Part shown: positions 1-36,255 of the stretch, one piece after another | Numbering within the stretch: the first letter of the stretch is position 1 | Layout of the letters: every line of letters starts with the position of its first letter | Made by a program: the position numbers and the translations under genes | Virus record (IMG/VR): IMGVR_UViG_3300033148_004259 | Coordinates: 1 to 64,000 of that record | Strand: one strand, 5' to 3' | From: a virus | Length of the DNA: 64,000 nucleotides | The notes under the pieces: model-generated | The model's database searches: none | Told to the model about the DNA's origin: nothing | What the model saw: the letters and a program-made list of their open reading frames with translations, nothing else

Positions 1-17
1 AGGGTGTTAGCCATAGG

Positions 18-914
18 TTATTTTCCTTGGATTTGCTTGCGCCGTCTCCTTACGTACTCTTCGATGGAGAGACCATCGAGAGAACCCGCGTCCGGGAGGT
101 CTCCTCCACCCCCCACGGCGGGCACCGGTTCGGGCGCGTTCGAAGCCTTCTTCTTGGGTTGCCGGGACGAAGCCTTCAACAGACCGCCAATTTTGCCGAT
201 CTGAGCTACCGCAGAAACAGGGTTCCGGCGCGATGCCTCGAAAATATCATCAGCAATGTCCGGATTGGAACCGAGATAGTAAGCCACTTCGTGCGCGTTA
301 TCCAGTTCAGCGATGGTCTCGCGCATCAGATCGTTGAAAAGATCCTGAGCGACTACCTCGTCGTAGTCTTTATAGACCTTTCGGCCTTCCTTGGCCGCTT
401 CTTGAAAGCGGGACTCAAGGCGACTACGCTCCCGAGCCTCTTCATCAGCCTGTCGAGCTGCCTGAATCTCGGCCTTCAGATCTTCGGTAGCTTTCTTTAT
501 GGACTGATCGATGAGAAACTGGGTTCGGGCCAAGCTGTACTCTTCAAACGTATCGAACTGGTCCTCGCGAGGGGGTCCCTTCGCTTTGCTGTCGTAGCGT
601 TCCGGGGGATCTCTTCCCTCCAAGGCAGCCAGTCGACTCTGCATTTTGTCAAGTAGGGCCTGGGCCTTCTCGGCTTTGCGTTCTGCTTCCCGCTGCTTGC
701 GGACTGCTTTGTTGATGCGCCTCTGAACTCCATCAGGAACGTCGGAATCTTTGTCCTGGTCCTGGGATTCGGGCGTGTCTTCGTCCGTTTTGGTCGGGGG
801 CGAAGTTTCGACCGGTCCTCCTGCACCCAGTTCGTCCGAGACATTGAGAGTATCCGGAAAGTCTGCCGCGTCTATAGTCGGGTCCATCCGGTCCTTCTTC
901 TCGGGTTCAGGCAT
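18..914 (-). CDS. Putative head scaffolding protein (298 aa)
   Basis: Highly charged, coiled-coil-like ORF just downstream of portal in the packaging/head operon. AAGGAGG RBS before the ATG at 914. Function inferred from position and composition only. Confidence 0.5.
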   Translation of the reverse strand: MPEPEKKDRMDPTIDAADFPDTLNVSDELGAGGPVETSPPTKTDEDTPESQDQDKDSDVPDGVQRRINKAVRKQREAERKAEKAQALLDKMQSRLAALEGRDPPERYDSKAKGPPREDQFDTFEEYSLARTQFLIDQSIKKATEDLKAEIQAARQADEEARERSRLESRFQEAAKEGRKVYKDYDEVVAQDLFNDLMRETIAELDNAHEVAYYLGSNPDIADDIFEASRRNPVSAVAQIGKIGGLLKASSRQPKKKASNAPEPVPAVGGGGDLPDAGSLDGLSIEEYVRRRRKQIQGK

Positions 915-995
915 AATAGCCTCCTTGTATGTAGCCTGGTGTTAAGCGTCGCCAGTACCGCGCCCTGTGCAAGCCACAGGTAAGCATCGTGCGCC

Positions 996-1331
996 TTACG
1001 GCTCCGTTTTGACGCCATTTGCTCTCATGGTGTCGTAGATGCCGCGAGCTAATTCCCCTCCAATCCGGCGGAGATCGGAGTGAGTGAGGACAAACTGATA
1101 GTCCCCAAGGTTGTTCTTATATCGGTAGCCGTTTTCGGCCATGCTGCATTCCATGAACTCGTGGATCAGAACCTCCAACCGATCCCAGTCGGTAGGAAGG
1201 ATTTTCGTGTCTATTCCAATTTCAGCTTCGAATCCATCAAACCAACCAGCTCCTTCTGGAGACCTGGTCGTAGACTTTTTGACCCGAAACTTTCTCCCGT
1301 CAGCGAGATAAGACTTGGGGAGCTTGAGCAT
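996..1331 (-). CDS. Hypothetical protein (111 aa)
   Basis: GGAGGAGG RBS before the ATG at 1331. Overlaps the portal stop, which suggests coupling. Lies between portal and scaffold. Confidence 0.6.
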   Translation of the reverse strand: MLKLPKSYLADGRKFRVKKSTTRSPEGAGWFDGFEAEIGIDTKILPTDWDRLEVLIHEFMECSMAENGYRYKNNLGDYQFVLTHSDLRRIGGELARGIYDTMRANGVKTEP

Positions 1332-3264
1332 TGGGGGTTCCTCCTCCCTCTGCAGCGGGCAGCTTGAACCCGGCTGCGGCTATGGCTGCGGCGGCCTCGG
1401 CCTTGCTCTTTTCGGCATTATACTGAGCGCCCTTCATACGAGCCTCGGCTTCTCCCACCTTGTACTGGAGGATTGGGTCCTCTTGCTGCTCTTCCTCCTG
1501 TTCCGGGGCGCCTCCCAGACGGGCCAGCATTGCCTGTGCAACAGGCTGGAGCCTCTTCGCGATTTGCTGAGCTCCCGGCCAGTCCATATTCTGGACGAGT
1601 ACGTCCCCGATAAGTAGAAAAATTTCGGAATTGGCCTGTGCGATCTGCATCATCGCATCGACCGCCTCTTCACGCTGCGTGGTGAAGGAAGGACCAGCTT
1701 TCACCACTACGTCGTACTTTCCTACGTCCAGAGCGTTGATCTTCTCCTGACCCTGCTGGACGTTGATTGGAACCAAAGTTTGCTCCCCCTTGATGTCGGT
1801 CACGCGGACCATCCGCTCCGTGTCGTATATTTTCGGGATCAGATCTACGAGAATCTTGCCGGTCCACCGAATGGCACGGGCCAAGTTGTCAATAAACGCA
1901 TAAGTCGCAGTGTCACCCTCACGCTGCCTGAGCAAGATTGCACGTCCGGATGTCTCGTTGGAGCGAGCCCCGAGAGAAGGGTCGTACAGTCCGGTCGTAG
2001 ATTTGATGTGCTCCGAGTTGACCTTAGCCCGTTGTTCAAGGCCTGTGGGTATGCCGGGACCGGATTGCCGCTTCGGCGGTGGCGCGTTCTCGTCATGTTC
2101 GTAGACGAGATACGGGATGGTACGCTTGTGGGCTTCCTTCCAGACCTTCTCGTGACCCCGTATCTGACGGGCTGTGATGATGTACGGAGCGAGCGGGGCC
2201 AGGGCGACCTGTTCGGTAGCCTTGGACTCCCAATAGTTGAACATCTTTTGGGGGTCTTTTGCGTACCGTACAAGACCGCGGATCTTGCGGGCGCCTGCTA
2301 TGTTTAGTTCCTTGCCCCAAACCGGAATAAGCGGAATGTACTTTCCGGCCCACCAGTTTGGACCCTCCAGGATGTCAGCCCCTGATATAACATATTGAAC
2401 TACCTTGAAGGAGTCAACTATTCTGGAGCGCGCAACGGTGGGTCCATCGGGATACTCTTCGCCGGTTATCTCGTCCTGGACCATCTGAGGCTGCTCCGGT
2501 TCGATGTCCGTGACAGTCCCGTCCGAGAGTTGGAAAATGGTCTTCCTCATCGGGACTTTGATCCAGTACCCGGCTATCCGTATCTTGTCGTCTACCCGCC
2601 AATGTGTAAAATCAGCCTGGTCTCCTACGTCTAAGGGGGCGGCGCGTTTTCCAGGGTATCGACTGTTGAACTGCTCTTCGGTCAGGAGCTCGGTAACGAA
2701 CATGTGCATGGCGTCGGAAAGGTTGCGCTTCTGGGCTCCGGCATCCCAATATACACTGAACGGGTTCGGGATGGACTCGACTACAATGTCCTGCTCGAAT
2801 ACGTCGTCGTCTGAATACTCGGTCAGTATCCGGAACCAGCCCCGACCGCAAATAACGGCAGACTCGAAGGCCATGTCGTAGACCTCTTCGGCATCCGATG
2901 TGTACTCGATGTTCCGAATCAAGCCTTCCATGGTTTCGGCCGTGTCGGGATCTGAATTACCATCCACCGGTATGATCTGAATCTGGGGGCGGTTCTGGCG
3001 CTGGTCGCCGACTACCTGATCTACCTTCTCCTGCAGCTTGTTGATGACAAGACATGGGCGTCCTTCCTGTTCCCGCTCCTTCTTTAAGGTATCAGGCCAC
3101 TGATCTCCGTTGTAGAATTTCAGATCGTCCAGGGCATCAGCCCTATTCTCCTTGTCGTTCTCCAAAGCGGCTTCGAACCTCTTGCGGGCCAAGGCCAGAA
3201 AGGCCTGCTTTGTAGCCAGCTTAGACTTCGAGGTAGGTGTGAGCTCTCCCTTTCGTCTTACCAT
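1300..3264 (-). CDS. Portal protein (654 aa)
   Basis: Portal-typical N-terminal motif (DDLKFYNGDQW...EGRPCLVINK). Size and position directly after the large terminase fit. AAGGAG RBS. Confidence 0.85.
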   Translation of the reverse strand: MVRRKGELTPTSKSKLATKQAFLALARKRFEAALENDKENRADALDDLKFYNGDQWPDTLKKEREQEGRPCLVINKLQEKVDQVVGDQRQNRPQIQIIPVDGNSDPDTAETMEGLIRNIEYTSDAEEVYDMAFESAVICGRGWFRILTEYSDDDVFEQDIVVESIPNPFSVYWDAGAQKRNLSDAMHMFVTELLTEEQFNSRYPGKRAAPLDVGDQADFTHWRVDDKIRIAGYWIKVPMRKTIFQLSDGTVTDIEPEQPQMVQDEITGEEYPDGPTVARSRIVDSFKVVQYVISGADILEGPNWWAGKYIPLIPVWGKELNIAGARKIRGLVRYAKDPQKMFNYWESKATEQVALAPLAPYIITARQIRGHEKVWKEAHKRTIPYLVYEHDENAPPPKRQSGPGIPTGLEQRAKVNSEHIKSTTGLYDPSLGARSNETSGRAILLRQREGDTATYAFIDNLARAIRWTGKILVDLIPKIYDTERMVRVTDIKGEQTLVPINVQQGQEKINALDVGKYDVVVKAGPSFTTQREEAVDAMMQIAQANSEIFLLIGDVLVQNMDWPGAQQIAKRLQPVAQAMLARLGGAPEQEEEQQEDPILQYKVGEAEARMKGAQYNAEKSKAEAAAAIAAAGFKLPAAEGGGTPNAQAPQVLSR

Positions 3265-3274
3265 TGCATTCTCC

Positions 3275-4732
3275 TTAGATCATCCAGATGTCCCGGCTTG
3301 GGATATTCTCTGACAAGGGCGGTGGAATGTAGTCGACTGGACCGTCGTTGAAGCTCATATTTCGAAACACGCCTACACAAACGTACTGGAGTGCATCATG
3401 TGGATGCGACCATTTGTTCTTCATCGGGCGAACGCCATACTGGTCGGTGCCTGGTACTTTCGGGTATGCATAACCGCCGACGAAACCGTTTATCAGACGG
3501 ACGCACACGGGGTCTATAACGAGACCGCCATGGCGGTTAATGCGCTGCTGTACCGCGTCGATGCGAACCGTCAGGTTATTCTCTGAGGGCCTCACATCCA
3601 CCTTGCACACGTCGCGCATTAGAGCTGCATTGGAGGTGAATCCGCCCTCGCGGCGACTGTAAGACGTGGAACCTGCCGGGTCGCCCCAATCAACGTAGTA
3701 GGCTCCCGGATACATCGAGTTACAGGACTCGACCACACGGGAAGTAAAGTCTACGATACCCTCGCGGTCGGTCCAGAATTCCCTGAGAACCTCGAATCTG
3801 TGCGGCTCCGGAATCTGCCCCACCACACACGCCGGGCAGTTGCCCGAATTATCCCACCCCCGAAATAGAACATCGCCTTTCCATTCAAGGGGCTCCGAAG
3901 CCACATGTATACTCTTGGAAAAGCCGGTGTAAACCATTCGGCCTTTGACGATGATTCCAGGCTTGCCTTCAACGTACATCTCGACCCAGTCGGGATTGTC
4001 GCGATAATCCTCACGGAGTCGATCATAGTAGTTGGGAGGCAGGTTTGCTTCATTCTCGAATGGAGGCTGCCAAAACCCAACATGGCCCTTTAAAGGCTGA
4101 CCTGACGGGACGGGACCAGGCGGAGGTGTAACCCACGCAAACTGGCTGTACGTATCGTGCTCTACATCAGGTGGGTTAGTCGTCTCGATGCCAAATCGCT
4201 CGGGACACCGACGAGGAAATCGCCCGATGCGGTTCTTCAGAATGCGCTTGACTTCCTCAGCCACCTCGATGCTTTCGTCAATCCAGTAGCCCGTGATTTC
4301 AAGGCTCTTGAACTTGCCGATCTCTTCCGGGCGGTCGCAAGACCGAAACATGGCCTCCACGTTCAACTTTACGCCTTTGTGACGGCCCTCTTCGATCTCC
4401 CACTTCAGAGTGTAAATGTTTTCCTGGCGCCTGAGTTCCCCATGGGGAAACCAGTCGAAGACCGTCCGTTGGGTCGTGTCTCGGAGCTCAGGATAGGTGT
4501 TTCGGAGTATAACCCACCGAGTGTTCCGAATTCCGTATGTCGCCCAAAGGTGGTCCGGGATATACTTGAAGAGTTCGACCGAAGCCCCAGAGGTCTTCCC
4601 TGAGCCAACCGCGCCCACTATACAGCGAATTTCGGCGTTCGACTCGTGGAATTTCTTCAGGGTGGGCAGCGCCCTGTACTCTATTCGGTCCTCAACCGGA
4701 CCGTCAGGAATTGCTCGTAACTGTCGCGGCAT
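3275..4732 (-). CDS. terL: Terminase large subunit (485 aa)
   Basis: Walker A (GAVGSGKTSG), Walker B-like WIDE, and a C-terminal nuclease-like region. Located upstream of portal. Confidence 0.9.
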   Translation of the reverse strand: MPRQLRAIPDGPVEDRIEYRALPTLKKFHESNAEIRCIVGAVGSGKTSGASVELFKYIPDHLWATYGIRNTRWVILRNTYPELRDTTQRTVFDWFPHGELRRQENIYTLKWEIEEGRHKGVKLNVEAMFRSCDRPEEIGKFKSLEITGYWIDESIEVAEEVKRILKNRIGRFPRRCPERFGIETTNPPDVEHDTYSQFAWVTPPPGPVPSGQPLKGHVGFWQPPFENEANLPPNYYDRLREDYRDNPDWVEMYVEGKPGIIVKGRMVYTGFSKSIHVASEPLEWKGDVLFRGWDNSGNCPACVVGQIPEPHRFEVLREFWTDREGIVDFTSRVVESCNSMYPGAYYVDWGDPAGSTSYSRREGGFTSNAALMRDVCKVDVRPSENNLTVRIDAVQQRINRHGGLVIDPVCVRLINGFVGGYAYPKVPGTDQYGVRPMKNKWSHPHDALQYVCVGVFRNMSFNDGPVDYIPPPLSENIPSRDIWMI

Positions 4733-5201
4733 CTTGCTTCTTCTTCTTAATCTTGTCTACGTTATAAGTGATCTTGACCTGAGCCTTGACGTCGTGGTCT
4801 CGCCGGTCCCGCCAGTTGCCGGGCTGTCTGTTTTTGAGCCAAAATATCTGAGCAATGGTGTCCGGTGGAATGACGCGGGTGGAAGACTTGGTTTTGACCA
4901 GATCGAAGGGCTTTCCGGCCCGTTCCCCGACTTCGCGATCCTCTACCACTTCGGTGATCTCGAAACCGGTGGCCCGGCGAAAAAGCGAGTCCCGGACTTT
5001 GGCGTCCGCCTCGGCAGAATAGTTCTCGAACATTTTGTGGAATTCGGCGTTTGAATGCAGAATGGCAAGGAAAGTCCGCTCCGTCAGACCCAACCTTTTG
5101 TAGATTTCTTTGCGGGGTACGCCGTCCAGGAGCCACCACTTGATCTCCTGGAGCCTGGGTTCTATGTGTTCCTCGTAGGAGTACTTATTAGACGTTCCCA
5201 T
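4704..5201 (-). CDS. terS: Putative terminase small subunit (165 aa)
   Basis: N-terminal HTH-like segment (GVPRKEIYKRLGLTERTF). Overlaps the terL start. AAGGAG RBS. Confidence 0.6.
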   Translation of the reverse strand: MGTSNKYSYEEHIEPRLQEIKWWLLDGVPRKEIYKRLGLTERTFLAILHSNAEFHKMFENYSAEADAKVRDSLFRRATGFEITEVVEDREVGERAGKPFDLVKTKSSTRVIPPDTIAQIFWLKNRQPGNWRDRRDHDVKAQVKITYNVDKIKKKKQDAATVTSNS

Positions 5202-5586
5202 GCTTGACTTCTCCTTTGCGTAACCGTGAATTGCTAACGGTGTTGCGTCGTCTTATCGGCTTTCCTGCATCCACCATCTGGCGCCGGGCCTCCAAGAGAG
5301 CCCCAATGATGCCGTACAAATGAGAAGGTTCCATCACGACCAAATCAAACTTGGCCTTTACCTGGCCCCTGAACAGAAGGGCAAAGACCATCCTGATTCG
5401 ATCCCACCAAGACTCCGGTAAGGAGTAGAGTTCTCCGTAGAAACTTACGGATGTAGTGCGGATCTCGTGGTCATAATCGACCTCCATGACCAAGGTGCAC
5501 CCTGGGTCACCACATCCGCACATAAGATGGTACAGTGTGTGGTCCTCACTGATCGGGACCTTTCCGGCCCCCTCGGTAACGCTCAC
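5188..5586 (-). CDS. Hypothetical protein (132 aa), GTG start
   Basis: GAGG RBS 8 nt before the GTG at 5586. Overlaps the terS start by 14 nt, so it sits in the operon. Confidence 0.55.
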   Translation of the reverse strand: MSVTEGAGKVPISEDHTLYHLMCGCGDPGCTLVMEVDYDHEIRTTSVSFYGELYSLPESWWDRIRMVFALLFRGQVKAKFDLVVMEPSHLYGIIGALLEARRQMVDAGKPIRRRNTVSNSRLRKGEVKHGNV

Positions 5587-5828
5587 GCATTTGCCTCACA
5601 ATCGCATCCAGGGCTTCCTTATCCCTGTGCATAGATTCTATAATTCCTTCGAGCCCCTTTATGGCCCTTTCAAGTGGACCGAACGCAGGAGCCTCATGTT
5701 CAAATTCGGGGGGTCTTCTATCAGTGCTTCTCAACGTTGCATCCCGGTGACCCCCCGTGAGGTGGGCCGTGTGGGCACGTCGCCTCTTCTTGTGCCGGGC
5801 TTGACAAAACGGTGAGTTCTTATGGGTA

Positions 5829-5857
5829 ATCTTATACAATTCTCGCCAATTTGTCAA
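5829..5857 (-). promoter_or_regulatory. Sigma70-like promoter facing the packaging genes
   Basis: Minus strand reads TTGACA (5857-5852), a 17-nt spacer, then TAAGAT (5834-5829). It sits immediately downstream of the tRNA at 5875. Confidence 0.45.
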
Positions 5858-5874
5858 ACGTTATACTGCATGTA

Positions 5875-5947
5875 TGGTAGCGGGGTGGAGACTCGAACTC
5901 CAAAGAATCAGGTTATGAACCTGACCGGGACACCTGTCCTCCCCGCG
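5875..5947 (-). tRNA. tRNA with CAU anticodon, initiator-like acceptor stem (73 nt, CCA encoded)
   Basis: Hand fold: CGCGGGG/CCCCGCU acceptor (C1:U72 unpaired, A73), anticodon arm UCAGG-UUCAUAA-CCUGA, T arm UGGAG-UUCGAGU-CUCCA. The D arm is unusually short (GGAC-AGGU-GUCC). Confidence 0.7.
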
Positions 5948-6003
5948 CTGAGACCCAGCGGCAACTCGCGCCCCGACTGGAGTACGGCGCGAGCATGTAC
6001 GCA

Positions 6004-6213
6004 TTATAGACACGTTTCCAAAACGCGTCCGCATTTACGGCATTTGTCGTCGTGTATGATGCCGCCGCATTTACAGAAGTCCACAAACCCGTAGGCCCGT
6101 GGAGTATTATCGTGGTGTTGATAGAGCCATTTCGGATCGACTTCGGAGGCATACTCACATTCGTCGCCTTCCAAGGTCCCTCCTGTCAGTGGCTTTATGT
6201 GCTCTTTGGCCAT
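6004..6213 (-). CDS. Small Cys-rich (zinc-ribbon-like) protein (69 aa)
   Basis: ORF between two tRNAs. C-terminal CKCGG...CRKCG motif. Purine-rich RBS. Confidence 0.55.
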   Translation of the reverse strand: MAKEHIKPLTGGTLEGDECEYASEVDPKWLYQHHDNTPRAYGFVDFCKCGGIIHDDKCRKCGRVLETCL

Positions 6214-6230
6214 TGCAATCTCTTCTTAAC

Positions 6231-6307
6231 TGGTCGGGACGCCCCAATTTGAACGGGGGACCACTCGCTTCCAAGGCGAGTACCCTACCTGACTGGGCCA
6301 CGTCCCG
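6231..6307 (-). tRNA. tRNA-Pro (UGG), CCA encoded
   Basis: Cloverleaf: CGGGACG/CGUCCCG acceptor (C1-G72, as in bacterial tRNA-Pro), anticodon arm CUCGC-CUUGGAA-GCGAG, T loop UUCAAAU. Confidence 0.85.
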
Positions 6308-6315
6308 CATACTTG

Positions 6316-6432
6316 TTAACGGCATCCATGGCAGGATGAGCATTGCTTGCAAACCGTGCCTTTGGACTCGATAAGTGCGATAGGAAACCGCATTGTGGTC
6401 TCCTTCGTAATTTTGGGCTTTTCGTACGACAT
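6316..6432 (-). CDS. Possible 38-aa Cys-rich mini-protein (MSYEKPKITKETTMRFPIALIESKGTVCKQCSSCHGCR)
   Basis: Below the ORF-track cutoff. Two in-frame ATGs are each preceded by GGAGACCA(U/C)A. CxxCxxCxxC tail. Fills the gap between tRNA-Pro and the next tRNA. Confidence 0.3.
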   Translation of the reverse strand: MSYEKPKITKETTMRFPIALIESKGTVCKQCSSCHGCR

Positions 6433-6449
6433 TATGGTCTCCCCAATGC

Positions 6450-6526
6450 TGGGGCCGCGAACCGGATTCGAACCGGTGATCACCGGCTTGAAGGGCCGGT
6501 GGCTTGGACCACTCGCCTACCGCGGC
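6450..6526 (-). tRNA. tRNA, anticodon UUC (Glu) if the loop is 7 nt; atypical
   Basis: GCCGCGG/UCGCGGC acceptor, T arm ACCGG-UUCGAAU-CCGGU, anticodon arm CCGGC-CCUUCAA-GCCGG (C at position 33). The 3-bp D stem resembles class II tRNAs but the variable loop is short. Confidence 0.6.
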
Positions 6527-6530
6527 TGAA

Positions 6531-6605
6531 TGGCTCCCGGAGGAGGACTCGAACCTCCATAGTTCTGGTTAACAGCCAGATGCCTTTCCATTAGGCCATC
6601 CGGGA
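6531..6605 (-). tRNA. tRNA-Asn (GUU), CCA encoded
   Basis: UCCCGGA/UCCGGGA acceptor, G73, anticodon arm UCUGG-CUGUUAA-CCAGA, T arm GGAGG-UUCGAGU-CCUCC. Confidence 0.9.
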
Positions 6606-6680
6606 TGGAACGGGCCTGGGGGATCGAACCCCACACTTCGGCTTGGAAGGCCGATATGTCGCCAACAACACCTTGCCCGC
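6606..6680 (-). tRNA. tRNA-Gly (UCC), CCA encoded
   Basis: GCGGGCA 5' acceptor strand (as in bacterial tRNA-Gly), U73, anticodon arm UCGGC-CUUCCAA-GCCGA, T arm UGGGG-UUCGAUC-CCCCA. Abuts tRNA-Asn with no spacer. Confidence 0.8.
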
Positions 6681-8326: not shown

Positions 8327-8332
8327 CCGTCT

Positions 8333-8358
8333 GGCCCCCTAACGGGGGCCTTTCCTTT
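8333..8358 (+). terminator. Rho-independent terminator
   Basis: GGCCCCC-UAAC-GGGGGCC hairpin followed by UUUCCUUU. Confidence 0.6.
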
Positions 8359-8677
8359 ACCCCGTTCACGGTAGCGTCCTATCGGGAGCTGGGTAAAGGG
8401 AAACCGGCCGGGCCAGTGCAACCCATAGGGACTGCAACGCCGGTACTTAGCTCAGGCAAGCCGGTAAAGCTAACCTGGTTAACCGGCGGTTTCCCAGTTA
8501 CTTAACCCCGACAGCCCACAAGCCTGACAGAACGACTGGTCGAACCTGCCGCAGAACAGGAGGGCAAGTGGGCCAAGGACAACAAGTTAGCCTGCCTGAC
8601 TCCACACCTGACTTTAAGGGCCGAAGGCTATCGGTGGTCAGTACAGGGGAGTCAGGCTCCCTACCTGGAGAGGAAGA

Positions 8678-10594: not shown

Positions 10595-10978
10595 ATGAGA
10601 TGGAAAATCGGATATAAAGTGGTTCAGGCCACTGCTGATGGACTACGTTCCTGGGGGATCGGCGTCTCGATACCAAGTTTTGTAGCCTTAGAGTACGGAG
10701 TAGGGAAGGTGACAATCCCGAAAAAGGGACACGGACCCATAGCAGTGTTTGACTCCGAAGAGAACGCCATAGAGTTTGCAACTCGCCACACTTTGAGGGC
10801 TTCCGACGTGGCCGCATATTCCAACACAAGGATCTTCAAGTGTAGATACATACCGTCTAAGCGAAAATACTTGTACTGGCGAGATGACTGGAGTCTTCAC
10901 ACGGCGGGCAAGGGCGACCTTCTACCCCCTGGAACTGTTATCGCTACCCGTGTAGAACTGTTAAGTGAATCACACTGA
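10595..10978 (+). CDS. Hypothetical protein (127 aa), tandem paralog 1
   Basis: Shares MxWKIGYK, GKVT(I/V)P, YxPSKRKYLYW and ATRVELL with the next ORF. Confidence 0.75.
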   Translation: MRWKIGYKVVQATADGLRSWGIGVSIPSFVALEYGVGKVTIPKKGHGPIAVFDSEENAIEFATRHTLRASDVAAYSNTRIFKCRYIPSKRKYLYWRDDWSLHTAGKGDLLPPGTVIATRVELLSESH

Positions 10979-10990
10979 CCGGAGGATACC

Positions 10991-11368
10991 ATGAAATGGA
11001 AAATAGGGTACAAGATAGTCCGAAACGTATGTGGCAGGCTGTACTCATGGGGAGCCGGTGGTTTAGTGCGGTCTGAAGCGACCGTAACATACGAAGTAGG
11101 TAAGGTAACAGTACCGAATAAGAGCTGCGGGCCTCTTGCAGTGTTCTCAACGATGTGGGACGCCGTAAACTTCGACAGGGCCTTCGATGTAGAAGTCTAC
11201 AGGTGCAAGTACGTGCCGTCCAAGCGTAAGTACCTGTACTGGAGGAAGAAGAACTTCACTTTCACGGCGGGCAAACACGACCCCCTACCTCACGGCACTG
11301 TTACCGCCACCCGTGTGGAGTTGCTGGAAGTAGTCAAAAGATGGCCACAACTGGAGGGCAAATCGTGA
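10991..11368 (+). CDS. Hypothetical protein (125 aa), tandem paralog 2
   Basis: GGAGGA RBS. Paralog of 10595..10978. Confidence 0.75.
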   Translation: MKWKIGYKIVRNVCGRLYSWGAGGLVRSEATVTYEVGKVTVPNKSCGPLAVFSTMWDAVNFDRAFDVEVYRCKYVPSKRKYLYWRKKNFTFTAGKHDPLPHGTVTATRVELLEVVKRWPQLEGKS

Positions 11369-14341: not shown

Positions 14342-14344
14342 AAG

Positions 14345-14383
14345 TCTGACATGTCAGAGTGTCAGAGTGTCAGAGTGTCAGAC
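14345..14383. repeat. Left array: palindrome TCTGACATGTCAGA followed by 4 tandem TGTCAGA(G/C) octamers
   Basis: Direct reading: tctgaca tgtcagag tgtcagag tgtcagag tgtcagac. Confidence 0.9.
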
Positions 14384-14556
14384 GGGTACATGCCTTTATG
14401 GAACAGGGGATTGCTATTACACGTATTAACTGCATTTACTTATTATTTTACTTCAACTAAAGCCTTTAACCCCTTTCCCCCCAAGGACTTGGGCGGGTCG
14501 AAATTTGGGGTCTGGATAACCGTTGCATAAGTGGGGTTCAGAGGTGTATATACGCG

Positions 14557-14588
14557 TCTGACAGTCTGACAACCTGACAGTCTGACAA
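14557..14588. repeat. Right array: 4 tandem (T/C)CTGACA(G/A) octamers, inverted relative to the left array
   Basis: Direct reading: tctgacag tctgacaa cctgacag tctgacaa. Confidence 0.9.
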
Positions 14589-14673
14589 ATTTCGGGCGCA
14601 AAGGGGCACGAACTTTCGCTGTCGAAGTGGCCCGCCGGTTTGCCCCTAACACTTTAGCTAAAAGGAGGGTCTC

Positions 14674-14997
14674 ATGTTCCGAGTAATAAGGCGTAACCCT
14701 GACACCTGGCGGGAGGTGGATGATCGCCAGGAGTATGAGATTATCGAGATCGGCAATGAGAGTGTATATTTGCGGGATGCCCTGGTCGAGATGGAGGCCC
14801 GCAACCGATTGCTCGGTGAGGGAGAGCCTCGCTGGGATATTGAGCATGATAACTGGATAAGCCTCGATCCTGGCGATAACTGGACGACCCTCGACCCTGA
14901 CGATTATCTGCGTGAGATAAATTGCTACGAGGTATACGAGTATCTTGTCGCTAAACTCGGCGTACCGGAAGCCAAGGCCGAAAAGTTAGTATCCTGA
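14674..14997 (+). CDS. Hypothetical acidic protein (107 aa)
   Basis: AAAGGAGGG RBS. First gene after the repeat-flanked gap. Confidence 0.75.
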   Translation: MFRVIRRNPDTWREVDDRQEYEIIEIGNESVYLRDALVEMEARNRLLGEGEPRWDIEHDNWISLDPGDNWTTLDPDDYLREINCYEVYEYLVAKLGVPEAKAEKLVS

Positions 14998-15009
14998 CAT
15001 TGCAGAACC

Positions 15010-15030
15010 GCCACCGTTACCCAGGAGGAA
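15010..15030 (+). repeat. Gene-junction motif, copy 1 of 5 (degenerate)
   Basis: gccaccgttacccaggaggaa, ending 4 nt before the ATG at 15035. Confidence 0.7.
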
Positions 15031-15034
15031 AGCG

Positions 15035-15220
15035 ATGAAAACCTATCATCAATACAACGGCAGAAGGACACCGGCGGCAGGACCGGTTACTATAGATATG
15101 TTTGAGTACATAATATTAGGGCCTGAGACCCGCAGGCAGGAAGCGGAATCGATGGAGCAGATAGCGACAAGTGTAGGTGAGGATATACCAGACCCCGCCA
15201 CGACAAACCAGGAGGAATAA
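15035..15220 (+). CDS. Hypothetical protein (61 aa), ends ATTNQEE
   Basis: AGGAGG RBS lies inside the junction motif. Its C-terminus is encoded by the next motif copy. Confidence 0.65.
   Translation: MKTYHQYNGRRTPAAGPVTIDMFEYIILGPETRRQEAESMEQIATSVGEDIPDPATTNQEE
15197..15217 (+). repeat. Gene-junction motif, copy 2 of 5
   Basis: gccacgacaaaccaggaggaa. Confidence 0.85.
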
Positions 15221-15222
15221 CA

Positions 15223-15573
15223 ATGGATTTTTACAAGGCAAAACCCGGCGTAAGATTTGTCGAGATTTTACACAGAAATGTAGACGAAGGGTATTTACTG
15301 GGAGAACCTGAGATAATGCCGCTTGTAGATTGCAACACTGAACTCCTGAGATTTAAAAGACTTGTTAGGGTATACGGGAGATGCACCGGGAAGGTGTATC
15401 GAGACCCTGACGGGAAGCACGTAGGATATGTATTTATCAAGCGGCAAAAATATGAAGATTGCAACGAGACTTATCTCCACGAGACATGGGTTACGTATAA
15501 CAAGGTAATCAAGCCCGCACAAATAGCCGAAGTGAAAGGTATATCACCCGCTACAATTTTCCAGGAGGAATAA
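15223..15573 (+). CDS. Hypothetical protein (116 aa), ends ATIFQEE
   Basis: Junction-motif RBS. Clean ORF. Confidence 0.7.
   Translation: MDFYKAKPGVRFVEILHRNVDEGYLLGEPEIMPLVDCNTELLRFKRLVRVYGRCTGKVYRDPDGKHVGYVFIKRQKYEDCNETYLHETWVTYNKVIKPAQIAEVKGISPATIFQEE
15549..15569 (+). repeat. Gene-junction motif, copy 3 of 5 (degenerate)
   Basis: gctacaattttccaggaggaa. Confidence 0.7.
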
Positions 15574-15574
15574 A

Positions 15575-15829
15575 ATGCCAAGATTAGAAATCAGAATTGA
15601 TCTGAATAACGCAGCGTTACAGACTGGCTGCGGACAGCAGATAAAGGATATACTTGGCTGCATAACGGGTAAATTAGAGCATATCGATTGCCCGGATGAT
15701 ATGCAAGACTATTATCAGCTTTTGCGGGACGTAAACGGCAACATTGTCGGAGATGCTATAGTCGCAGTACATACCCCCGTTGTGGTGCGGCAAGCAATCG
15801 CCACGACAAACCAAGAGGAAACACGATGA
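15575..15829 (+). CDS. Hypothetical protein (84 aa), ends ATTNQEETR
   Basis: Junction-motif RBS. Confidence 0.7.
   Translation: MPRLEIRIDLNNAALQTGCGQQIKDILGCITGKLEHIDCPDDMQDYYQLLRDVNGNIVGDAIVAVHTPVVVRQAIATTNQEETR
15800..15820 (+). repeat. Gene-junction motif, copy 4 of 5
   Basis: gccacgacaaaccaagaggaa. Confidence 0.85.
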
Positions 15830-26673: not shown

Positions 26674-26892
26674 ATGATGCTTACACCGAGAACCGAAGGA
26701 TACTGGCGAACTTTCGGCGAGTGGCTCAACGCCGTGTGTGAGATCATTGGTCGGGATCCGGTGTGCCGGTCCATGATCGCCGAATTCGACCCAAAGGAAC
26801 AATGGGTCAGAGGGCCACGCACCTTTTCAGGCGGCTTGCATGTTTTTGCATTGAAAAAGCTTGACAAACTGCCCTTAACTCCTTATAATTAA
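26674..26892 (+). CDS. Hypothetical protein (72 aa)
   Basis: GAGAGGAGG RBS. Its 3' end contains a consensus promoter. Confidence 0.6.
   Translation: MMLTPRTEGYWRTFGEWLNAVCEIIGRDPVCRSMIAEFDPKEQWVRGPRTFSGGLHVFALKKLDKLPLTPYN
26861..26889 (+). promoter_or_regulatory. Perfect consensus sigma70 promoter (TTGACA-N17-TATAAT)
   Basis: ttgaca (26861-26866), a 17-nt spacer, then tataat (26884-26889). Sits 26 nt upstream of the ATG at 26915. Confidence 0.6.
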
Positions 26893-26914: not shown

Positions 26915-27208
26915 ATGGAAAATTCCGAACCTAAAGTAGTCGTCTACGGCCGTGCTTCACTTACGGACCTGGCTGCCATTGCGCGTTATTACGTGGAACG
27001 CGGCAATTTGCCTAAGTCTCGGGGCGGCCTTCTGTCCCAAGTCGTCAGGGACATGGCCAGTATGGTCCTTGCAATGCAGTTAGTAGAGGGCTTCCCAGAC
27101 TATCTAACTGCCAACGCTTACCTTATGTCCATAGGACTGGGGCCGAAGTCTACAAGAGAGCGAGCCAGCCAGTTCGTCCAGGACGTAACGGGGAAGGAGG
27201 CTGAATGA
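26915..27208 (+). CDS. Hypothetical protein (97 aa)
   Basis: First gene after the consensus promoter. GAGGG RBS. Confidence 0.7.
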   Translation: MENSEPKVVVYGRASLTDLAAIARYYVERGNLPKSRGGLLSQVVRDMASMVLAMQLVEGFPDYLTANAYLMSIGLGPKSTRERASQFVQDVTGKEAE

Positions 27209-31472: not shown

Positions 31473-31820
31473 ATGGACATCGAATTTGCCGTCACTACCA
31501 CCATTATAATCACTCTCCTTGTGGCTCTCAGCTTAGCCTTGACAAAGCTGTTGGAGCTTCGGAGAGAGTTCGAGATGGCAGAAACCATCATTGCCGCCTT
31601 GATAGAGACGCCCATCAATACGGCTCAAGCGGCACAGAGGCTCGGAGTTTCCGCAAAGACTGTTCGCAAACTCGTGCGTGAGGGAACACTTGAGGGTTCT
31701 AAAGTAGGACGTAGAATTCGCATATCTCCGTCCTCGCTCATTAAGCTCCGAGGACAGATTAACGAGTTGAGGAGGGCACGTGGCCACATTTCGGGAACAA
31801 GTAAAATATCGTCTGAATGA
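31473..31820 (+). CDS. Membrane-anchored excisionase/MerR-type HTH protein (115 aa)
   Basis: N-terminal TM segment (TTTIIITLLVALSLAL), then TAQAAQRLGVSAKTVRKLVREGTLEGSKVGRRIRI. UAAGGAGG RBS. Confidence 0.65.
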   Translation: MDIEFAVTTTIIITLLVALSLALTKLLELRREFEMAETIIAALIETPINTAQAAQRLGVSAKTVRKLVREGTLEGSKVGRRIRISPSSLIKLRGQINELRRARGHISGTSKISSE

Positions 31821-32163: not shown

Positions 32164-34619
32164 GAGGCGTAGGTCCGATAGATGCGGATCTGGCTCTGGT
32201 CGGGGAGGCCCTTGGGGAATCCGAAGACCGTAAAGGAGAGCCGTTTGTCGGGCGGGCCGGGTACGAGCTGGACATCTGGTGTGGAGCCGCCGGGATTGCC
32301 CGGGACGAGATCTACCTGACAAACGTAGTCAAAGAGCGCCCCCTGAACAACGCCATTTCGATCTTCGTAAACCTGACCGAGATCACGCAGAAGAAGCCCA
32401 TATCTGCGGCCCCTCGATACGAAGATTTTCTCGAATACGTGAACCTGCTTCGGGAAGAACTGGCCAAGACCAAGGCAAAGGTGTTTGTGGCTTTCGGAAA
32501 CACGCCCCTGTACGCACTGACCGGCAAGATCGGGATCACCACGTACCGCGGCTCCATTCTGAAATGCACGCTCGTACCAGGGCGCAAAGTCATTCCGACC
32601 TTTCACCCCGCAGCGGCCCTCAGACAATTCGACTATCGGTACTTCGGTATCCAGGACCTTATCCGGGCACGTGGAGACTCGAAGTTCCCCGAGTTGAGAT
32701 GGCCCGTACGGACTCTCAGGACGGAGTGCACGTACGAAGACATCGTGGATTTTCTGCAGGGCTTGGTAAAACAGATTCCGGGTACGGGCAGAAGGCCCTA
32801 TGAAGAGTCGGACCTGCCGATACTGGCCCTTGATATAGAGGCCATCAACGACGAGGTGAGCCACGTTGGTCTGTCTCTCGGCTCCGAAGAGGCCACCTCG
32901 ATCCACTTCTTAGAGCCCTGGCGTAATGTCTGGACTGTAGAAGAGGAAGTCCGGATCTGGAAGATGCTGGATACGATCCTCACTTGCTACCCGATAGTGG
33001 CCCAGAACGGCAACTACGATGCCTTTATGCTCTTTCGAAAGTATGGCATCCGGGTCAATCTCCAGCACGACACGAGTGTGGCCCATCACATAGCTTTTCC
33101 GGGACTTCCGAAGCGGCTTGAAGTTCTGGCCTCTCTTTATACCCGGGAACCGCATTGGAAGGAAGAGGGCAAGCAAGCCATTAAACGTGGAGACTGGAAT
33201 CAGAAGGAGTTTTCCGAGTACAATTGCAAGGACGTAGTTGTCCTTCATGACATCCTACCCAGGGTTCGTACCGAAGTAAGGAGGTATCGCAATGAAGATC
33301 TCTATCGGCGCACGATGGCTCTTGTCCGGGGTCCCATTATGGCTATTCAGGCCAGAGGAATCCGAATTGATATGGAGGTCCGTGCCAAACTTGCCGCCGA
33401 GTATCAGGATAAGGAGGACCGGGCATCCAGACGTCTACATGATCTCGTTGGATTCGAGCTCAACCCCAACTCCCACCCACAGGTCAAGAAGTACTTCTAT
33501 GAGACCTTGGGATACAAGCCTTACACGGGGAAGAAAGGGAAGTCGACGGTTGATGAGGAAGCTCTCATCAGGCTCGGCAATCAGGGTGCCGAGGCGGCGC
33601 CCATCATTCTCGAATGCCGCCGGGCACGGAAAGCTCGTTCCACCTTCGTCGAGTGTCCCCTCGACCCGGACGGGCGGCTGCGGTCGTCGCTCACTCCTTC
33701 GACCGTATCAGGGCGCTTAGCCTCGTCCCGTTGGCTTTGGGGTACGGGGACCAACCAGCAGAATTACCCGAAGTCCATAAGAGCCATGTGGATAGCGGAC
33801 CCGGACTATGCGGCCTACGGTATGGACCTGGTCGGTGCGGACAACCGCGTAGTTGCCTACCTTGCCAACGAGAAGACCCAGATAGAAGCCTTCGAGATGG
33901 GCAAGGATCTGCACTCTATAACGGCCGGAAGGATATTTGGCATACCCCCTGAGCAGGTTTCCCGAGAGGAAGGCTCGGCAGGCATCGGCAGCCCTGACGA
34001 GTCTCAGCGCGGCATTGGTAAACGGGCGAACCACGGTTTGAACTACGACATGACCCCGCGCACCGCCGCCATTGAATGGGAAATGCCGGAACGTGACGCA
34101 AAGCGGATCTGGTTTGGATACCACCAAGCCTATCCCCGGATACGAAGCACGTTCCACGCAGAAGTTCGAGCCGGGTTAGACGAGACTCGCATTTTGACTA
34201 ACCCGATGGGCAGGCACAGGAAATTCTTTGGCCGCTCCGGGCGCGAGCTCTATAAGGAAGGCTACAATTGGATGGCACAGAGTACAGTCGCCGACGTGAT
34301 CAATTGGTGGGGTCTGTTGCACATACACGAACGCCAAGACCTCTTCAAGCCAGTAGAGCTTCTTAACCAGATACATGACGAGCTGGACTTCCAACTTCCC
34401 TTGAGTCTCGGTTGGGTTTCCCATGCCGACATGATTCTTAGAATTCGGGACTCTCTTCAGCAAACCATGTACTGGAAGAGCCGCCCCTTTTATCTTCCGG
34501 TCGAGTTGAAGATCGGGCACGGGTTCTACCCCATGATTGAGATAAACATCGACAAGATCAGTTCGGCTGTCAAATTGGCCGTTATGTTAAAGGAGGCCTG
34601 GTATGGACAGACAGCCTAA
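32142..34619 (+). CDS. Family A DNA polymerase fused to an N-terminal family-4 UDG-like domain and a 3'-5' exonuclease (825 aa)
   Basis: UDG motifs GEALGESEDRKGEPFVGRAG and HPAAALR. Exo motifs LDIEA, NGNYD, YNCKD. Pol motifs DLVGADNRV, RGIGKRANHGLNYD, QIHDEL. TTG start is uncertain. Confidence 0.9.
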   Translation: MSIHIRVGGVGPIDADLALVGEALGESEDRKGEPFVGRAGYELDIWCGAAGIARDEIYLTNVVKERPLNNAISIFVNLTEITQKKPISAAPRYEDFLEYVNLLREELAKTKAKVFVAFGNTPLYALTGKIGITTYRGSILKCTLVPGRKVIPTFHPAAALRQFDYRYFGIQDLIRARGDSKFPELRWPVRTLRTECTYEDIVDFLQGLVKQIPGTGRRPYEESDLPILALDIEAINDEVSHVGLSLGSEEATSIHFLEPWRNVWTVEEEVRIWKMLDTILTCYPIVAQNGNYDAFMLFRKYGIRVNLQHDTSVAHHIAFPGLPKRLEVLASLYTREPHWKEEGKQAIKRGDWNQKEFSEYNCKDVVVLHDILPRVRTEVRRYRNEDLYRRTMALVRGPIMAIQARGIRIDMEVRAKLAAEYQDKEDRASRRLHDLVGFELNPNSHPQVKKYFYETLGYKPYTGKKGKSTVDEEALIRLGNQGAEAAPIILECRRARKARSTFVECPLDPDGRLRSSLTPSTVSGRLASSRWLWGTGTNQQNYPKSIRAMWIADPDYAAYGMDLVGADNRVVAYLANEKTQIEAFEMGKDLHSITAGRIFGIPPEQVSREEGSAGIGSPDESQRGIGKRANHGLNYDMTPRTAAIEWEMPERDAKRIWFGYHQAYPRIRSTFHAEVRAGLDETRILTNPMGRHRKFFGRSGRELYKEGYNWMAQSTVADVINWWGLLHIHERQDLFKPVELLNQIHDELDFQLPLSLGWVSHADMILRIRDSLQQTMYWKSRPFYLPVELKIGHGFYPMIEINIDKISSAVKLAVMLKEAWYGQTA

Positions 34620-35883
34620 AGACCATACAGAGCGCCGGATGCCTGATTGGATGGATGGCTTTATGGAATACACCGACCCTCTGGAACCCTGCCCCTTGTA
34701 CTTCAGGTGGACGGCTATAGCGACTCTCTCGTCCGTCCTGGAACGCAAGTGCTGGCTTCCGCACGGGGTGGACAAGACCTTCTATCCGAACTTTTACATT
34801 GCCCTGGTTGGCCCATCGGGAGCTCGAAAGACCACCGCTCTGGAGGTGGGCCAGCGGGCGCTTGAAGAAATAGGCATGACCGTTGGTAGACAGTCCTGGA
34901 CCACTCCCATCATGCTAAAAATGATGAATAAGAGCTACGAGGCTTTGAAAGAGGCTGGGAAGAAGGGGCCATACCTGCACAGCTCTCTTTCTCTCTTCGC
35001 AGGCGAGCTGGCCGTGTTTCTCAAGCCTCACAAGGTAGACGTCAAGTGGTTCGATATGTTGTGTGATCTGTACGACTGTGGATCGACCTTCGAGTATTAC
35101 ACCATGACCTCCGACATCATCCTGTGTAAGAACATCTACCTGACGATATTCGGAGGAATGACTCCAGACGGCGTGGCCAAAGCTATTCCGCGGTCCGTCG
35201 TGGGAGAGGGTTTCACTTCCCGGATGATATTTGCATGGTCCAACACGTGGGGCATGGACAAGGACCCCGACTCGTATGACACATCGGAGAGACGCTCCTT
35301 ATGGGACGACCTGCTCGACGATCTTCGAATAATTCGTTCCATGTCGGGTCCCTTCTGTCAAGGAGAAAGCTTTAAGGCTCTGTACCAGCCGTGGTATGAG
35401 CGCATCCGCAAGGAACCTAAGCTGCCCGGGCGGGAGTTCAAAGGCTACAACAGTCGGCGTCAGGTACATCTGTTGAAGCTGGCAATAATTTCTTGCGCAA
35501 GTCGTCGAGACGGTAGAATGACCCTCAATGACAGAGACTTCCGGCGAGCTCTGAGCATCCTGGAAGAAGTAGAATGTCAGATGCCACGGGCCGTAGGATA
35601 CATCACGACCGACCAGTTCGCCCGGGTACAGCAGGAAGTTATGGAGTTAATGTGCCAGGCCAAGGACAAGAGAATGACCCTTAGTCAGATCTACCGTCAG
35701 GTTCACGGGGACGTTTCACTCAAAGACCTGAAGGACCGCGTAATGTGGAGCCTTCGGGAGATACATTTCATAACTTGTGAAAATCCGGGAGCTCGGCACG
35801 GTCACGAAGAGTTGATCTACGTGGTAAACCCGGCATTTTACAAGTCCTTCTACCGGCCTATTATAGGAAAGAAAGGAGCCTAA
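34603..35883 (+). CDS. P-loop NTPase, DUF3987/helicase-like (426 aa)
   Basis: Walker A LVGPSGARKT. Immediately downstream of the polymerase. AAAGGAGG RBS. Helicase role is inferred. Confidence 0.6.
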   Translation: MDRQPKDHTERRMPDWMDGFMEYTDPLEPCPLYFRWTAIATLSSVLERKCWLPHGVDKTFYPNFYIALVGPSGARKTTALEVGQRALEEIGMTVGRQSWTTPIMLKMMNKSYEALKEAGKKGPYLHSSLSLFAGELAVFLKPHKVDVKWFDMLCDLYDCGSTFEYYTMTSDIILCKNIYLTIFGGMTPDGVAKAIPRSVVGEGFTSRMIFAWSNTWGMDKDPDSYDTSERRSLWDDLLDDLRIIRSMSGPFCQGESFKALYQPWYERIRKEPKLPGREFKGYNSRRQVHLLKLAIISCASRRDGRMTLNDRDFRRALSILEEVECQMPRAVGYITTDQFARVQQEVMELMCQAKDKRMTLSQIYRQVHGDVSLKDLKDRVMWSLREIHFITCENPGARHGHEELIYVVNPAFYKSFYRPIIGKKGA

Positions 35884-36255
35884 ATGGAATCCGAAACCGC
35901 ATCTCAGCTCCAAAGAGAGGGCGTCAAGTACGATAAGGGCAAACTCAGGTACGATCTTATTCCGCCTGCCCCTTTAGAAGAGCTGGTTGCCGTGTATACC
36001 ATGGGCGCCGAGAAGTACGACGACCGGAATTGGGAGAAGGGCATGAAGTGGGGTCGGATCTTCGGTGCCCTGATGCGTCACGCTTGGAGGTTTTGGGCCG
36101 GGGACGAGAAGGACCACGAGTCCGGACTGCATCCTCTGGCCCATGCGGCGTGGTGTTGTTTCACCCTTATGGAGTACGCCAGGACGCACAGAGAGCTGGA
36201 TGATCGTCCCAAAGCCGCAAAGGCCCAACAGAGAGGCCAGGAGGATACCAAGTGA
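35884..36255 (+). CDS. dATP/dGTP pyrophosphohydrolase N-terminal-domain-like protein (123 aa)
   Basis: KYDKGKLRYDLIP...GAEKYDDRNWEKG...RHAWRFWAGDEKDHESGLHPLAHAAW fits the phage family pattern as recalled. Confidence 0.6.
   Translation: MESETASQLQREGVKYDKGKLRYDLIPPAPLEELVAVYTMGAEKYDDRNWEKGMKWGRIFGALMRHAWRFWAGDEKDHESGLHPLAHAAWCCFTLMEYARTHRELDDRPKAAKAQQRGQEDTK

Follow-up and report, generated by a model that had tools for sequence, protein, structure and literature searches.

Known origins and arrays of short repeats

Iterons next to an unwinding element are a known kind of element. The O gene of phage lambda contains four iterons, which are 19-bp direct repeats, and the T4 origins ori(uvsY) and ori(34), as well as the primary origin of T7, consist of a promoter and a downstream unwinding element. 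Array periods are 8 bp for the MetJ metboxes, 7 bp for the omega heptads and 8 bp for ParG/parH; in the ParR/parC system of plasmid R1, two arrays are placed around a promoter. MetJ and omega, together with CopG, are ribbon-helix-helix repressors with phased 7-9-bp repeats. Finally, SaPI/PICI origins contain 6-12 short iterons, arranged as two opposed sets around an AT-rich centre, and the self-loading helicases of SaPI and SCCmec are of the same protein type as the DUF3987 protein of the phage studied here (PMC9371898, PMC6092414).

The DNA analysed in this work, a 64-kb stretch referred to as the window, is nearly all of the 65.8-kb contig of an uncultured phage. The group to which it belongs has ~45-66-kb genomes with a UDG-PolA fusion, a DUF3987 helicase predicted to be MCM-like and, in many cases, a Ro60 gene. 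Its members are abundant in metagenomes, and the group has no cultured representative, known origin or regulatory circuit.

Like the SaPI/PICI origins, the window carries opposed short iterons (here 5 + 4 TGTCAGAS) that flank an AT-rich region, in a genome that itself encodes a predicted MCM-like/SF3 AAA+ helicase with a C-terminal winged helix. The phage units are contiguous 8-mers, whereas those of SaPI/PICI are dispersed penta- or hexanucleotides, and the SaPI origin lies immediately downstream of rep, whereas the phage element is 20 kb from the helicase gene. Moreover, the protein that co-varies with the repeats in phage relatives is small and not a helicase, and the carrier is a ~66-kb phage of the lytic type rather than a satellite. 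With lambdoid ori/O and the iteron plasmids, the element shares iterons that adjoin an AT-rich unwinding region (reviewed in PMC4980987). In lambdoid O, the N-terminal domain of the initiator co-varies with the iterons and the C-terminal part is conserved, as in the phage pair L310/L311 discussed below. The iterons of lambda and of the plasmids are direct repeats of ~17-22 bp placed about two helical turns apart; in contrast, the phage units measure 8 bp and are contiguous and, unlike those of lambda, form two inverted arrays in an intergenic gap. No similarity to lambda O or plasmid Rep proteins was found.

The contiguity of the repeats, a period shorter than a helical turn and the use of both direct and inverted orientations are shared with the sites of MetJ, omega, ParG and ParR. 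As in ParR/parC, two arrays flank a core; the putative binder has a motif that looks strand-helix-helix-like by eye, with no ribbon-helix-helix detected by Pfam or a PDB profile search. Unlike in the ParR/parC, omega and ParG sites, no promoter was found in the window core, although relatives L312 and L314 partly show this feature. Unlike ParR/parC, the element has no partner NTPase detectable by Pfam scans of the ~80 ORFs, and its core is 173 bp long, against 39 bp in parC. The T4 and T7 origins resemble it in having an AT-rich unwinding element in an intergenic gap between early and middle genes, and in L311, L312 and L314 promoters point into or lie beside the core; they differ in that the window element has no recognisable promoter and the T4/T7 origins have no flanking iteron arrays. 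What is new here is the use of contiguous 8-bp units in two inverted arrays, the occurrence in a full-size uncultured phage group, and a small, possibly ribbon-helix-helix, co-varying protein with cassette-like specificity swaps between near-identical phages.

Architecture and genomic position of the element

The gap that contains the element (14342-14673) lies between plus-strand genes and, as the original prediction had stated, holds no credible ORF: the only one present (14351-14530, 59 aa) shows no coding signal and was left uncalled by the JGI gene caller. Nine TGTCAGAS copies form two opposed arrays (14345-14383 and 14557-14588) whose coordinates, sequences and orientation were exactly as first described; read in the iteron orientation, the heptamer of this consensus is perfect in eight of the nine. 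The left array starts 10 nt after the stop codon of a 109-aa zinc-ribbon gene. Its outermost iteron, TCTGACA (14345-14351), is inverted (minus strand) and forms the perfect palindrome TCTGACATGTCAGA with the next copy; four contiguous 8-bp iterons follow on the plus strand and face the core (14352-14383; TGTCAGAG three times, then TGTCAGAC). The right array (14557-14588, minus strand) has four contiguous 8-bp iterons in the opposite orientation, likewise facing the core. It reads TCTGACAG TCTGACAA CCTGACAG TCTGACAA, which corresponds to two exact copies of the 16-mer CTGACAGTCTGACAAC, and ends 86 nt before the start of the downstream gene (14674).

The inverted arms are 156 nt apart, and the core between the arrays (14384-14556) measures 173 bp. 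In agreement with the AT-rich stretch noticed earlier, a duplex-stability scan of the 64 kb placed the window-wide minimum, for segments of 40, 50 and 80 bp alike, in a 74% AT part of the core (14414-14463, no strand assigned); this candidate DNA-unwinding element contains TTTACTT twice, 12 bp apart. The right part of the core (14464-14556) is G+C-rich and is closed by an imperfect palindrome, TCAGAGGTGTATATACGCGTCTGA (14538-14561), that overlaps the first right iteron. An 8/9 match to a DnaA box at 14511-14519 is not above chance, and DnaA-box-like sites in general were present at chance level only. The description of the element as phased, putatively protein-binding repeats around an unwinding-prone core is supported by related phages, which have the design with other repeat sequences and in which the repeats co-vary with an adjacent protein (see below).

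The genome is organised in blocks of opposite polarity. Positions 1-6680 (minus strand) carry a P22-like portal, the large terminase and tRNAs; early ORFans, a Ro60/TROVE gene and the replication module occupy 6643-38120 (plus strand); and the late block (38255-64000, minus strand) includes a 2933-aa protein. The replication module comprises a PD-(D/E)XK exonuclease, an AAA_24 protein, the UDG-PolA fusion and the DUF3987 protein. The element lies inside the plus-strand block, among the ORFans.

This position bears on two functions that had been proposed alongside an origin, namely a centromere-like partition site and a terminase recognition (pac/cos) site, which together we consider highly improbable. 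Two phased arrays around a core do resemble plasmid R1 parC and the omega or ParG sites, and a small, possible ribbon-helix-helix protein co-varies with the repeats; however, Pfam scans of the ~80 window ORFs detected no ParA, ParM or TubZ-type NTPase and no integrase, and the gene content looks lytic. As for packaging, the terminase genes (3275-5201) are ~10 kb away on the minus strand with nothing that ties them to the element, which lies within a co-directional early block and not at a block boundary.

Comparison of the flanks with cultured phages, by DNA and protein searches, returned nothing. For the upstream 264-aa protein, neither a set of 5.8 billion proteins nor IMG/VR yielded a relative, and the single-sequence AF2 model of the downstream 107-aa protein is of low confidence (pLDDT 70) and shows no ribbon-helix-helix. 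Because the early genes are ORFans, flank-based comparison failed. One other contig carries the flanking genes (JGI L001), and since it is 99.96% identical to the window it was uninformative.

Rarity of the arrays

The heptamer TGTCAGA occurs 12 times in the window, 8 of these in the element. With up to three mismatches allowed, a two-unit pattern gave 8 matches in the window, 6 of them in the element, against 1.6 expected, and none of 100 shuffles reached 8 matches. The element is by far the strongest local hexamer cluster of the window; outside the arrays, CTGACA is if anything under-represented (19 copies vs ~33 expected). The additional copy reported at about position 8521 was found as CCTGACAG at 8523-8530 and is a single copy at chance level. 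No other short-period arrays were detected by TRF in the non-coding DNA of the window. In 1.42 Mb of related phage DNA, arrays of at least three hexamer copies with a period of 7, 8, 10 or 11 were absent, and an inverted-repeat search gave one match in the 64-kb window and one weak match in 1.6 Mb of other DNA of the phage group.

The exact array is absent from IMG/VR, and many unrelated contigs, of viral, metagenomic or bacterial origin, carry 8-mer arrays based on TGTCAG. Arrays of at least four TGTCAGNN units are common in bacterial genomes (more than 120 loci), and one Acidobacteria MAG contains many intergenic inverted CTGACA/TGTCAG arrays, as might be expected if the element were a selfish or neutral repeat, either a MITE-like insertion with terminal inverted repeats or functionless slippage arrays. 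There is very little to recommend this explanation for the phage: the element is present in single copy in 64 kb, no target-site duplication was seen on reading the flanks by eye, and 1.4-1.6 Mb of further sequence from the group contains almost no arrays or inverted repeats of this kind. Moreover, at least seven related phages have an element of this design, with a different sequence, in their early regions, and both arms are exchanged together with a protein domain (see below). No proteins are common to the window and the generic TGTCAGNN array-bearing loci.

In the MAG (RPQK01; L082, L083, L123, L127, L128, L143 and others), the arrays have the form (CTGACARA)n - core - (TYTGTCAG)n, with 5-20 copies per arm and a variable 30-100-nt core, and are often located at contig ends. 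Their hexamer is identical to that of the phage element and their arrangement is opposite; they look like a genome-wide family of hairpin-forming repeats.

In the unrelated contigs L207, L215, L018 and L030, TGTCAG/CTGACA arrays together with AT-rich stretches were found at the 3' end of a primase-helicase gene, a layout also seen in SaPI. This adjacency is suggestive; it is not significantly enriched relative to a control set (4/64 vs 1/50) and is therefore treated as an illustration only. When the C-terminal domains of the array-adjacent primase-helicases were compared with one another and with the ORFs of the window, no similarity was seen.

Elements of the same design in related phages

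Relatives were found through syntenic homologues of the helicase, and their early regions were reached by walking upstream. Elements of the same design, with different repeat sequences, were identified in at least seven related phages. For example, in L307, which is ~50% identical in protein sequence to the window phage, 48-nt inverted arms made of 8-bp units (ATTTCAAA ATTACAAA ATTTCAAA) lie in an intergenic gap, are separated by 158 nt (156 nt in the window) and enclose the least stable 50-mer of the 19.5-kb locus. In both phages the gap follows a small zinc-ribbon-like ORF. No primary sequence common to the two elements was found.

Among eight further early regions, five showed arms around an AT-rich core that is the stability minimum of the locus. 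Analogous elements were assigned in L308, L309, L310, L311, L312 and L313, and in all six relatives scored the least stable 50-mer of the locus falls in the AT-rich core. In L310 (TGTAATGA), L311 (TAATGTCGT) and L313 (TTAATGTAT), the arms clearly contain repeats phased at 8-9 bp, and L314 has 6/12-bp arrays around an A19 tract. Across the relatives, the repeat sequence varies, the period ranges from 6 to 9 bp and the arm spacing from ~60 to 220 nt. The elements of L310 (2300-2470) and L311 (3260-3445) have in their conserved core a perfect 11-bp inverted pair (TTAACGATCTT ... AAGATCGTTAA) that contains GATC and is kept despite the swapped flanking iterons.

Relatives that lack the arrays had been named in the original prediction as a finding that would speak against it; the opposite was observed, in that the relatives keep the design. 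As at least seven of them combine the same design with varied repeats, we conclude from the sequence comparison that the design of the element is conserved and that its repeat sequence is not. A conserved and easily recognised cis element is thereby gained for the group, together with an identifiable candidate for its cognate protein.

A protein that co-varies with the repeats

The phages L310 and L311 are ~92% identical in DNA across the left flank of the element; four of their flanking proteins are 82-100% identical and the others 74-95%. Against this background, the repeat segments of both arms have been exchanged, along with the N-terminal two-thirds of the gene immediately downstream; the two phages retain a common C-terminal third in the downstream protein and common inner boundaries of the core. 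Such a joint exchange is typical of a DNA-binding specificity domain and its sites, a role that the N-terminal two-thirds may have. A co-variation pattern of this kind is known for lambdoid O proteins and their iterons. Further pairs show the same association: L311 and L313 have repeats in common and their proteins are 51% identical, and L310 and L314 have in common TGTAAT-type repeats and a V-P-V-Q-x-R strand. The element is directly upstream of the co-varying gene in L310, L311, L313 and L314. On the basis of these alignments, the co-variation points to a cognate binding protein, and swaps such as that between L310 and L311 are ready-made natural experiments.

An HMM of the co-varying proteins found one member per relative. 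The co-variation of initiator specificity and iterons is a feature of the relatives, and the window carries just a homologue, a 97-aa protein (26915-27208, plus strand) that is the candidate iteron-binding protein. It is encoded by the first gene of the replication module, behind a consensus promoter (see below), and overlaps the start of the exonuclease gene. Its match to the family HMM has an E value of 0.004 in a small search space, and it is clearly homologous to the L307 member. In the family alignment, a strand and a helix are followed by a G...RS.S turn and another helix, an arrangement that looks ribbon-helix-helix-like by eye and would suit a repeat period below one helical turn; neither Pfam nor a PDB profile search detected a ribbon-helix-helix in the family.

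Promoters, RNA structure and base composition at the element

The CTGACA within the octamer resembles a -35 box, and a multi-operator promoter had been suggested. This was not borne out by a sigma-70 promoter scan of the gap: the best match was 8/12 and no -10 follows any CTGACA copy. The absence carries weight, since a perfect consensus promoter is recognisable elsewhere in the window (TTGACA-17-TATAAT, 12/12, at 26861-26889, plus strand), where it heads the replication module. TTGACT-17-TATTAT/TATATT promoters are found at the equivalent place in L216 (~585-615) and L307 (9896-9924); the host therefore uses promoters of the sigma-70 type. Similarly, no promoter better than 8/12 was found in the L307 element, and consensus promoters are clear elsewhere in that phage. 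Other relatives differ: TTGACA-17-TATATT is located just before the arrays of L314, 11/12 promoters are present in and after the element of L312, and convergent TGcTATAAT motifs in the inner arms of L311 face the core.

These observations bear on the main rival of an origin, an operator or roadblock for a transcriptional switch, which we regard as possible and on the unlikely side. Here, both arrays would be occupied by the co-varying protein, possibly with the intervening ~15 helical turns looped out, so as either to repress a core promoter or to stop early-gene transcription from continuing into the 14674-18314 block; in relatives the protein would also autoregulate its own gene. Such a role would suit the position of the element directly upstream of the co-varying gene in the four relatives named above, the promoters at the L314 and L312 elements and the TGnTATAAT motifs of L311, the arm spacings of 156 nt and 158 nt in the window and L307 (~15 helical turns), and the phasing of 7-9-bp repeats that is typical of ribbon-helix-helix repressors. 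The fall in GC content and rise in GC skew downstream of the locus also suggest a module boundary. However, neither the window nor the L307 element contains a promoter above 8/12, although both phages have consensus promoters elsewhere, and the neighbouring genes are all on one strand, so that divergent transcription cannot explain symmetric opposed arrays. In the window, moreover, the gene for the binder homologue is 12 kb away and no TGTCAG is present near its promoter (26861-26889), which makes autoregulation there unlikely. Finally, the core is the global duplex-stability minimum in every locus checked, beyond what a promoter needs. If the element is an operator, it defines the early-to-middle switch of the group. 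By analogy with iteron plasmids, the origin and operator readings need not be mutually exclusive.

Since the arrays are opposed, the arms pair in silico as RNA, in a 37-40-bp stem that encloses ~156 nt (-99.8 kcal/mol, z = -5.8); the opposed arrays are the sole source of this stem. An element acting at the RNA level, for example an RNase III processing site or a long hairpin RNA, is nevertheless very doubtful. It would agree with the folding of the L307 element, which is also better than that of shuffles (z = -3.2), with the retention of arm complementarity in relatives of differing sequence, and with the lack of any intrinsic terminator in or before the gap, from which the gap is probably transcribed. 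Conversely, the enclosed core shows no folding advantage over shuffles on either strand (z = +0.9), no Rfam match was found in the gap, mismatches in the arms fall at the degenerate position of the unit and are uncompensated, and RNA pairing leaves both the 8-9-bp periodicity and the co-variation with a protein N-terminus unexplained.

The GC-skew inflection that had been proposed as a check for an origin was not seen: the skew has the same, positive sign to the left and to the right of the locus.

Helicase and neighbouring genes of the replication module

The DUF3987 protein (34603-35883, plus strand) is the candidate replicative helicase and an alternative candidate for iteron binding. Its AF2 model, built with a homologue alignment, has a pLDDT of 90.5 and gives MCM helicases, ORC/Cdc6 and RuvB as the best PDB fold matches. 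Residues 338-408, at the C-terminus, adopt a winged-helix topology in the predicted structure. The model places the protein among MCM-like AAA+ ATPases, with a winged helix at its C-terminus. The helicase is encoded on more than 560 IMG/VR contigs. In the window its gene is 20 kb from the element and is abutted by the next gene. In ~90 loci from relatives, the DNA within 10 kb of the helicase gene (1.4-1.6 Mb) contained no arrays and, apart from one weak match, no inverted repeats like those of the element.

Directly after the helicase gene, 35884-36255 (plus strand) encodes a dATP/dGTP diphosphohydrolase N-terminal domain (PF18909, 6.6e-34; MazZ-like) that is kept in L216 and L227 and may point to a pathway for modified bases or the nucleotide pool. 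An HTH_17 (excisionase/MerR-like) protein encoded immediately before the polymerase gene (31473-31820, plus strand; 4.9e-12), also kept in L216, is another candidate site-specific DNA binder.

A candidate replication origin

The element is probably functional, given its rarity, its conserved design, its co-evolution with a protein and the presence, in every case, of the most easily melted DNA within it. With moderate confidence, we consider that it is most likely the replication origin of the phage, of the iteron/unwinding-element type. An origin is favoured because known origins have a comparable design, with opposed arrays on either side of an unwinding element; because the neighbouring genes are all on one strand and nothing directional explains the symmetry; because the window element has no promoter even though consensus promoters are recognisable in the phage; and because the candidate binder is encoded in the replication module, alongside an MCM-like helicase (as predicted from its model) that needs a loading site. 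Thus, of the original prediction, phased repeats around an unwinding-prone core were upheld and an origin fits best, with the design kept and the repeats co-varying with a protein, while partition, terminase and promoter functions were not supported. The RNA-level, partition, packaging and selfish-element readings are each unlikely.

From these data we infer the identity of the binder, the melting of the core and a start of replication at the element. A phage DNA-binding protein would coat both opposed arrays of 8-bp iterons (five on the left and four on the right); the 97-aa protein encoded at 26915-27208 is the leading candidate, with the winged helix of the MCM-like helicase (34603-35883) as the alternative. 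Given the 8-bp period, successive dimers would wind around the helix in the manner of ribbon-helix-helix proteins bound to metbox, omega-heptad or parH arrays. The two oppositely oriented nucleoprotein arrays would then strain and open the AT-rich segment (14414-14463), the MCM-like helicase would be loaded in both directions, and the UDG-PolA polymerase would take over after helicase loading.

Several features count against an origin. There is no sign change of the GC skew at the locus, and the genes for the candidate binder and the helicase are located 12 kb and 20 kb from the element, respectively. Its position upstream of the co-varying gene in four relatives would be equally well explained by an autoregulated operator, and strong sigma-70-like promoters are present at or in the L314 and L312 elements. 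Furthermore, repeats phased at 8-9 bp are characteristic of ribbon-helix-helix repressors and of proteins that bind centromeres rather than of classical initiators.

If the element is an origin, the design of opposed short iterons around an AT centre extends from SaPI/PICI satellites to full-size phages, and a non-helicase, array-binding initiator is suggested. A more specific proposal, which we put forward only tentatively and think rather unlikely, is that the phage group uses as initiator a small ribbon-helix-helix-like array-coating protein of the ParR/omega/MetJ type (6-9-bp repeats), whose opposed arrays would melt the DNA and load the MCM-like helicase. This would make the element a hybrid of centromere-type nucleoprotein architecture and replication origin, with its specificity swapped as a cassette between near-identical phages.

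Other features of the phage genome

A Ro60/TROVE homologue is encoded at 19440-20954 (plus strand; Pfam 1.9e-18; phrog_850, 'RNA-binding protein'), downstream of a tRNA-His (18322-18397) and of ~240 nt of non-coding DNA (19198-19440). The locus could be a phage Y-RNA locus; no Y RNA was detected there at the Rfam gathering threshold. Ro60 is also present in the relatives L219 and L220 and in 42 unrelated IMG/VR contigs. Loci anchored on Ro60 (L039-L080) were tried as relatives and rejected, as only Ro60 was common with the window.

A non-coding stretch of 350 nt (8327-8677, 59% G+C) follows a strong terminator hairpin (8333-8350), contains no ORF and no Rfam match, and might be a structured RNA. 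Several early genes are related to one another. Tandem paralogous genes are found at 10595-10978 and 10991-11368 (MRWKIGYK.. and MKWKIGYK..), and a three-member family (16735-17220, 17168-17539 and 17901-18314) has a C-terminal NTALILAI..A motif in common. Several consecutive genes in 15035-16146 end in ..TTNQEE, as part of a repeat that extends across the stop codon and RBS regions. Finally, the 2933-aa ORF of the late block (43517-52318, minus strand) has counterparts in relatives, where giant ORFs of 1486-2437 aa occupy the same place; its product is possibly a virion-associated protein.
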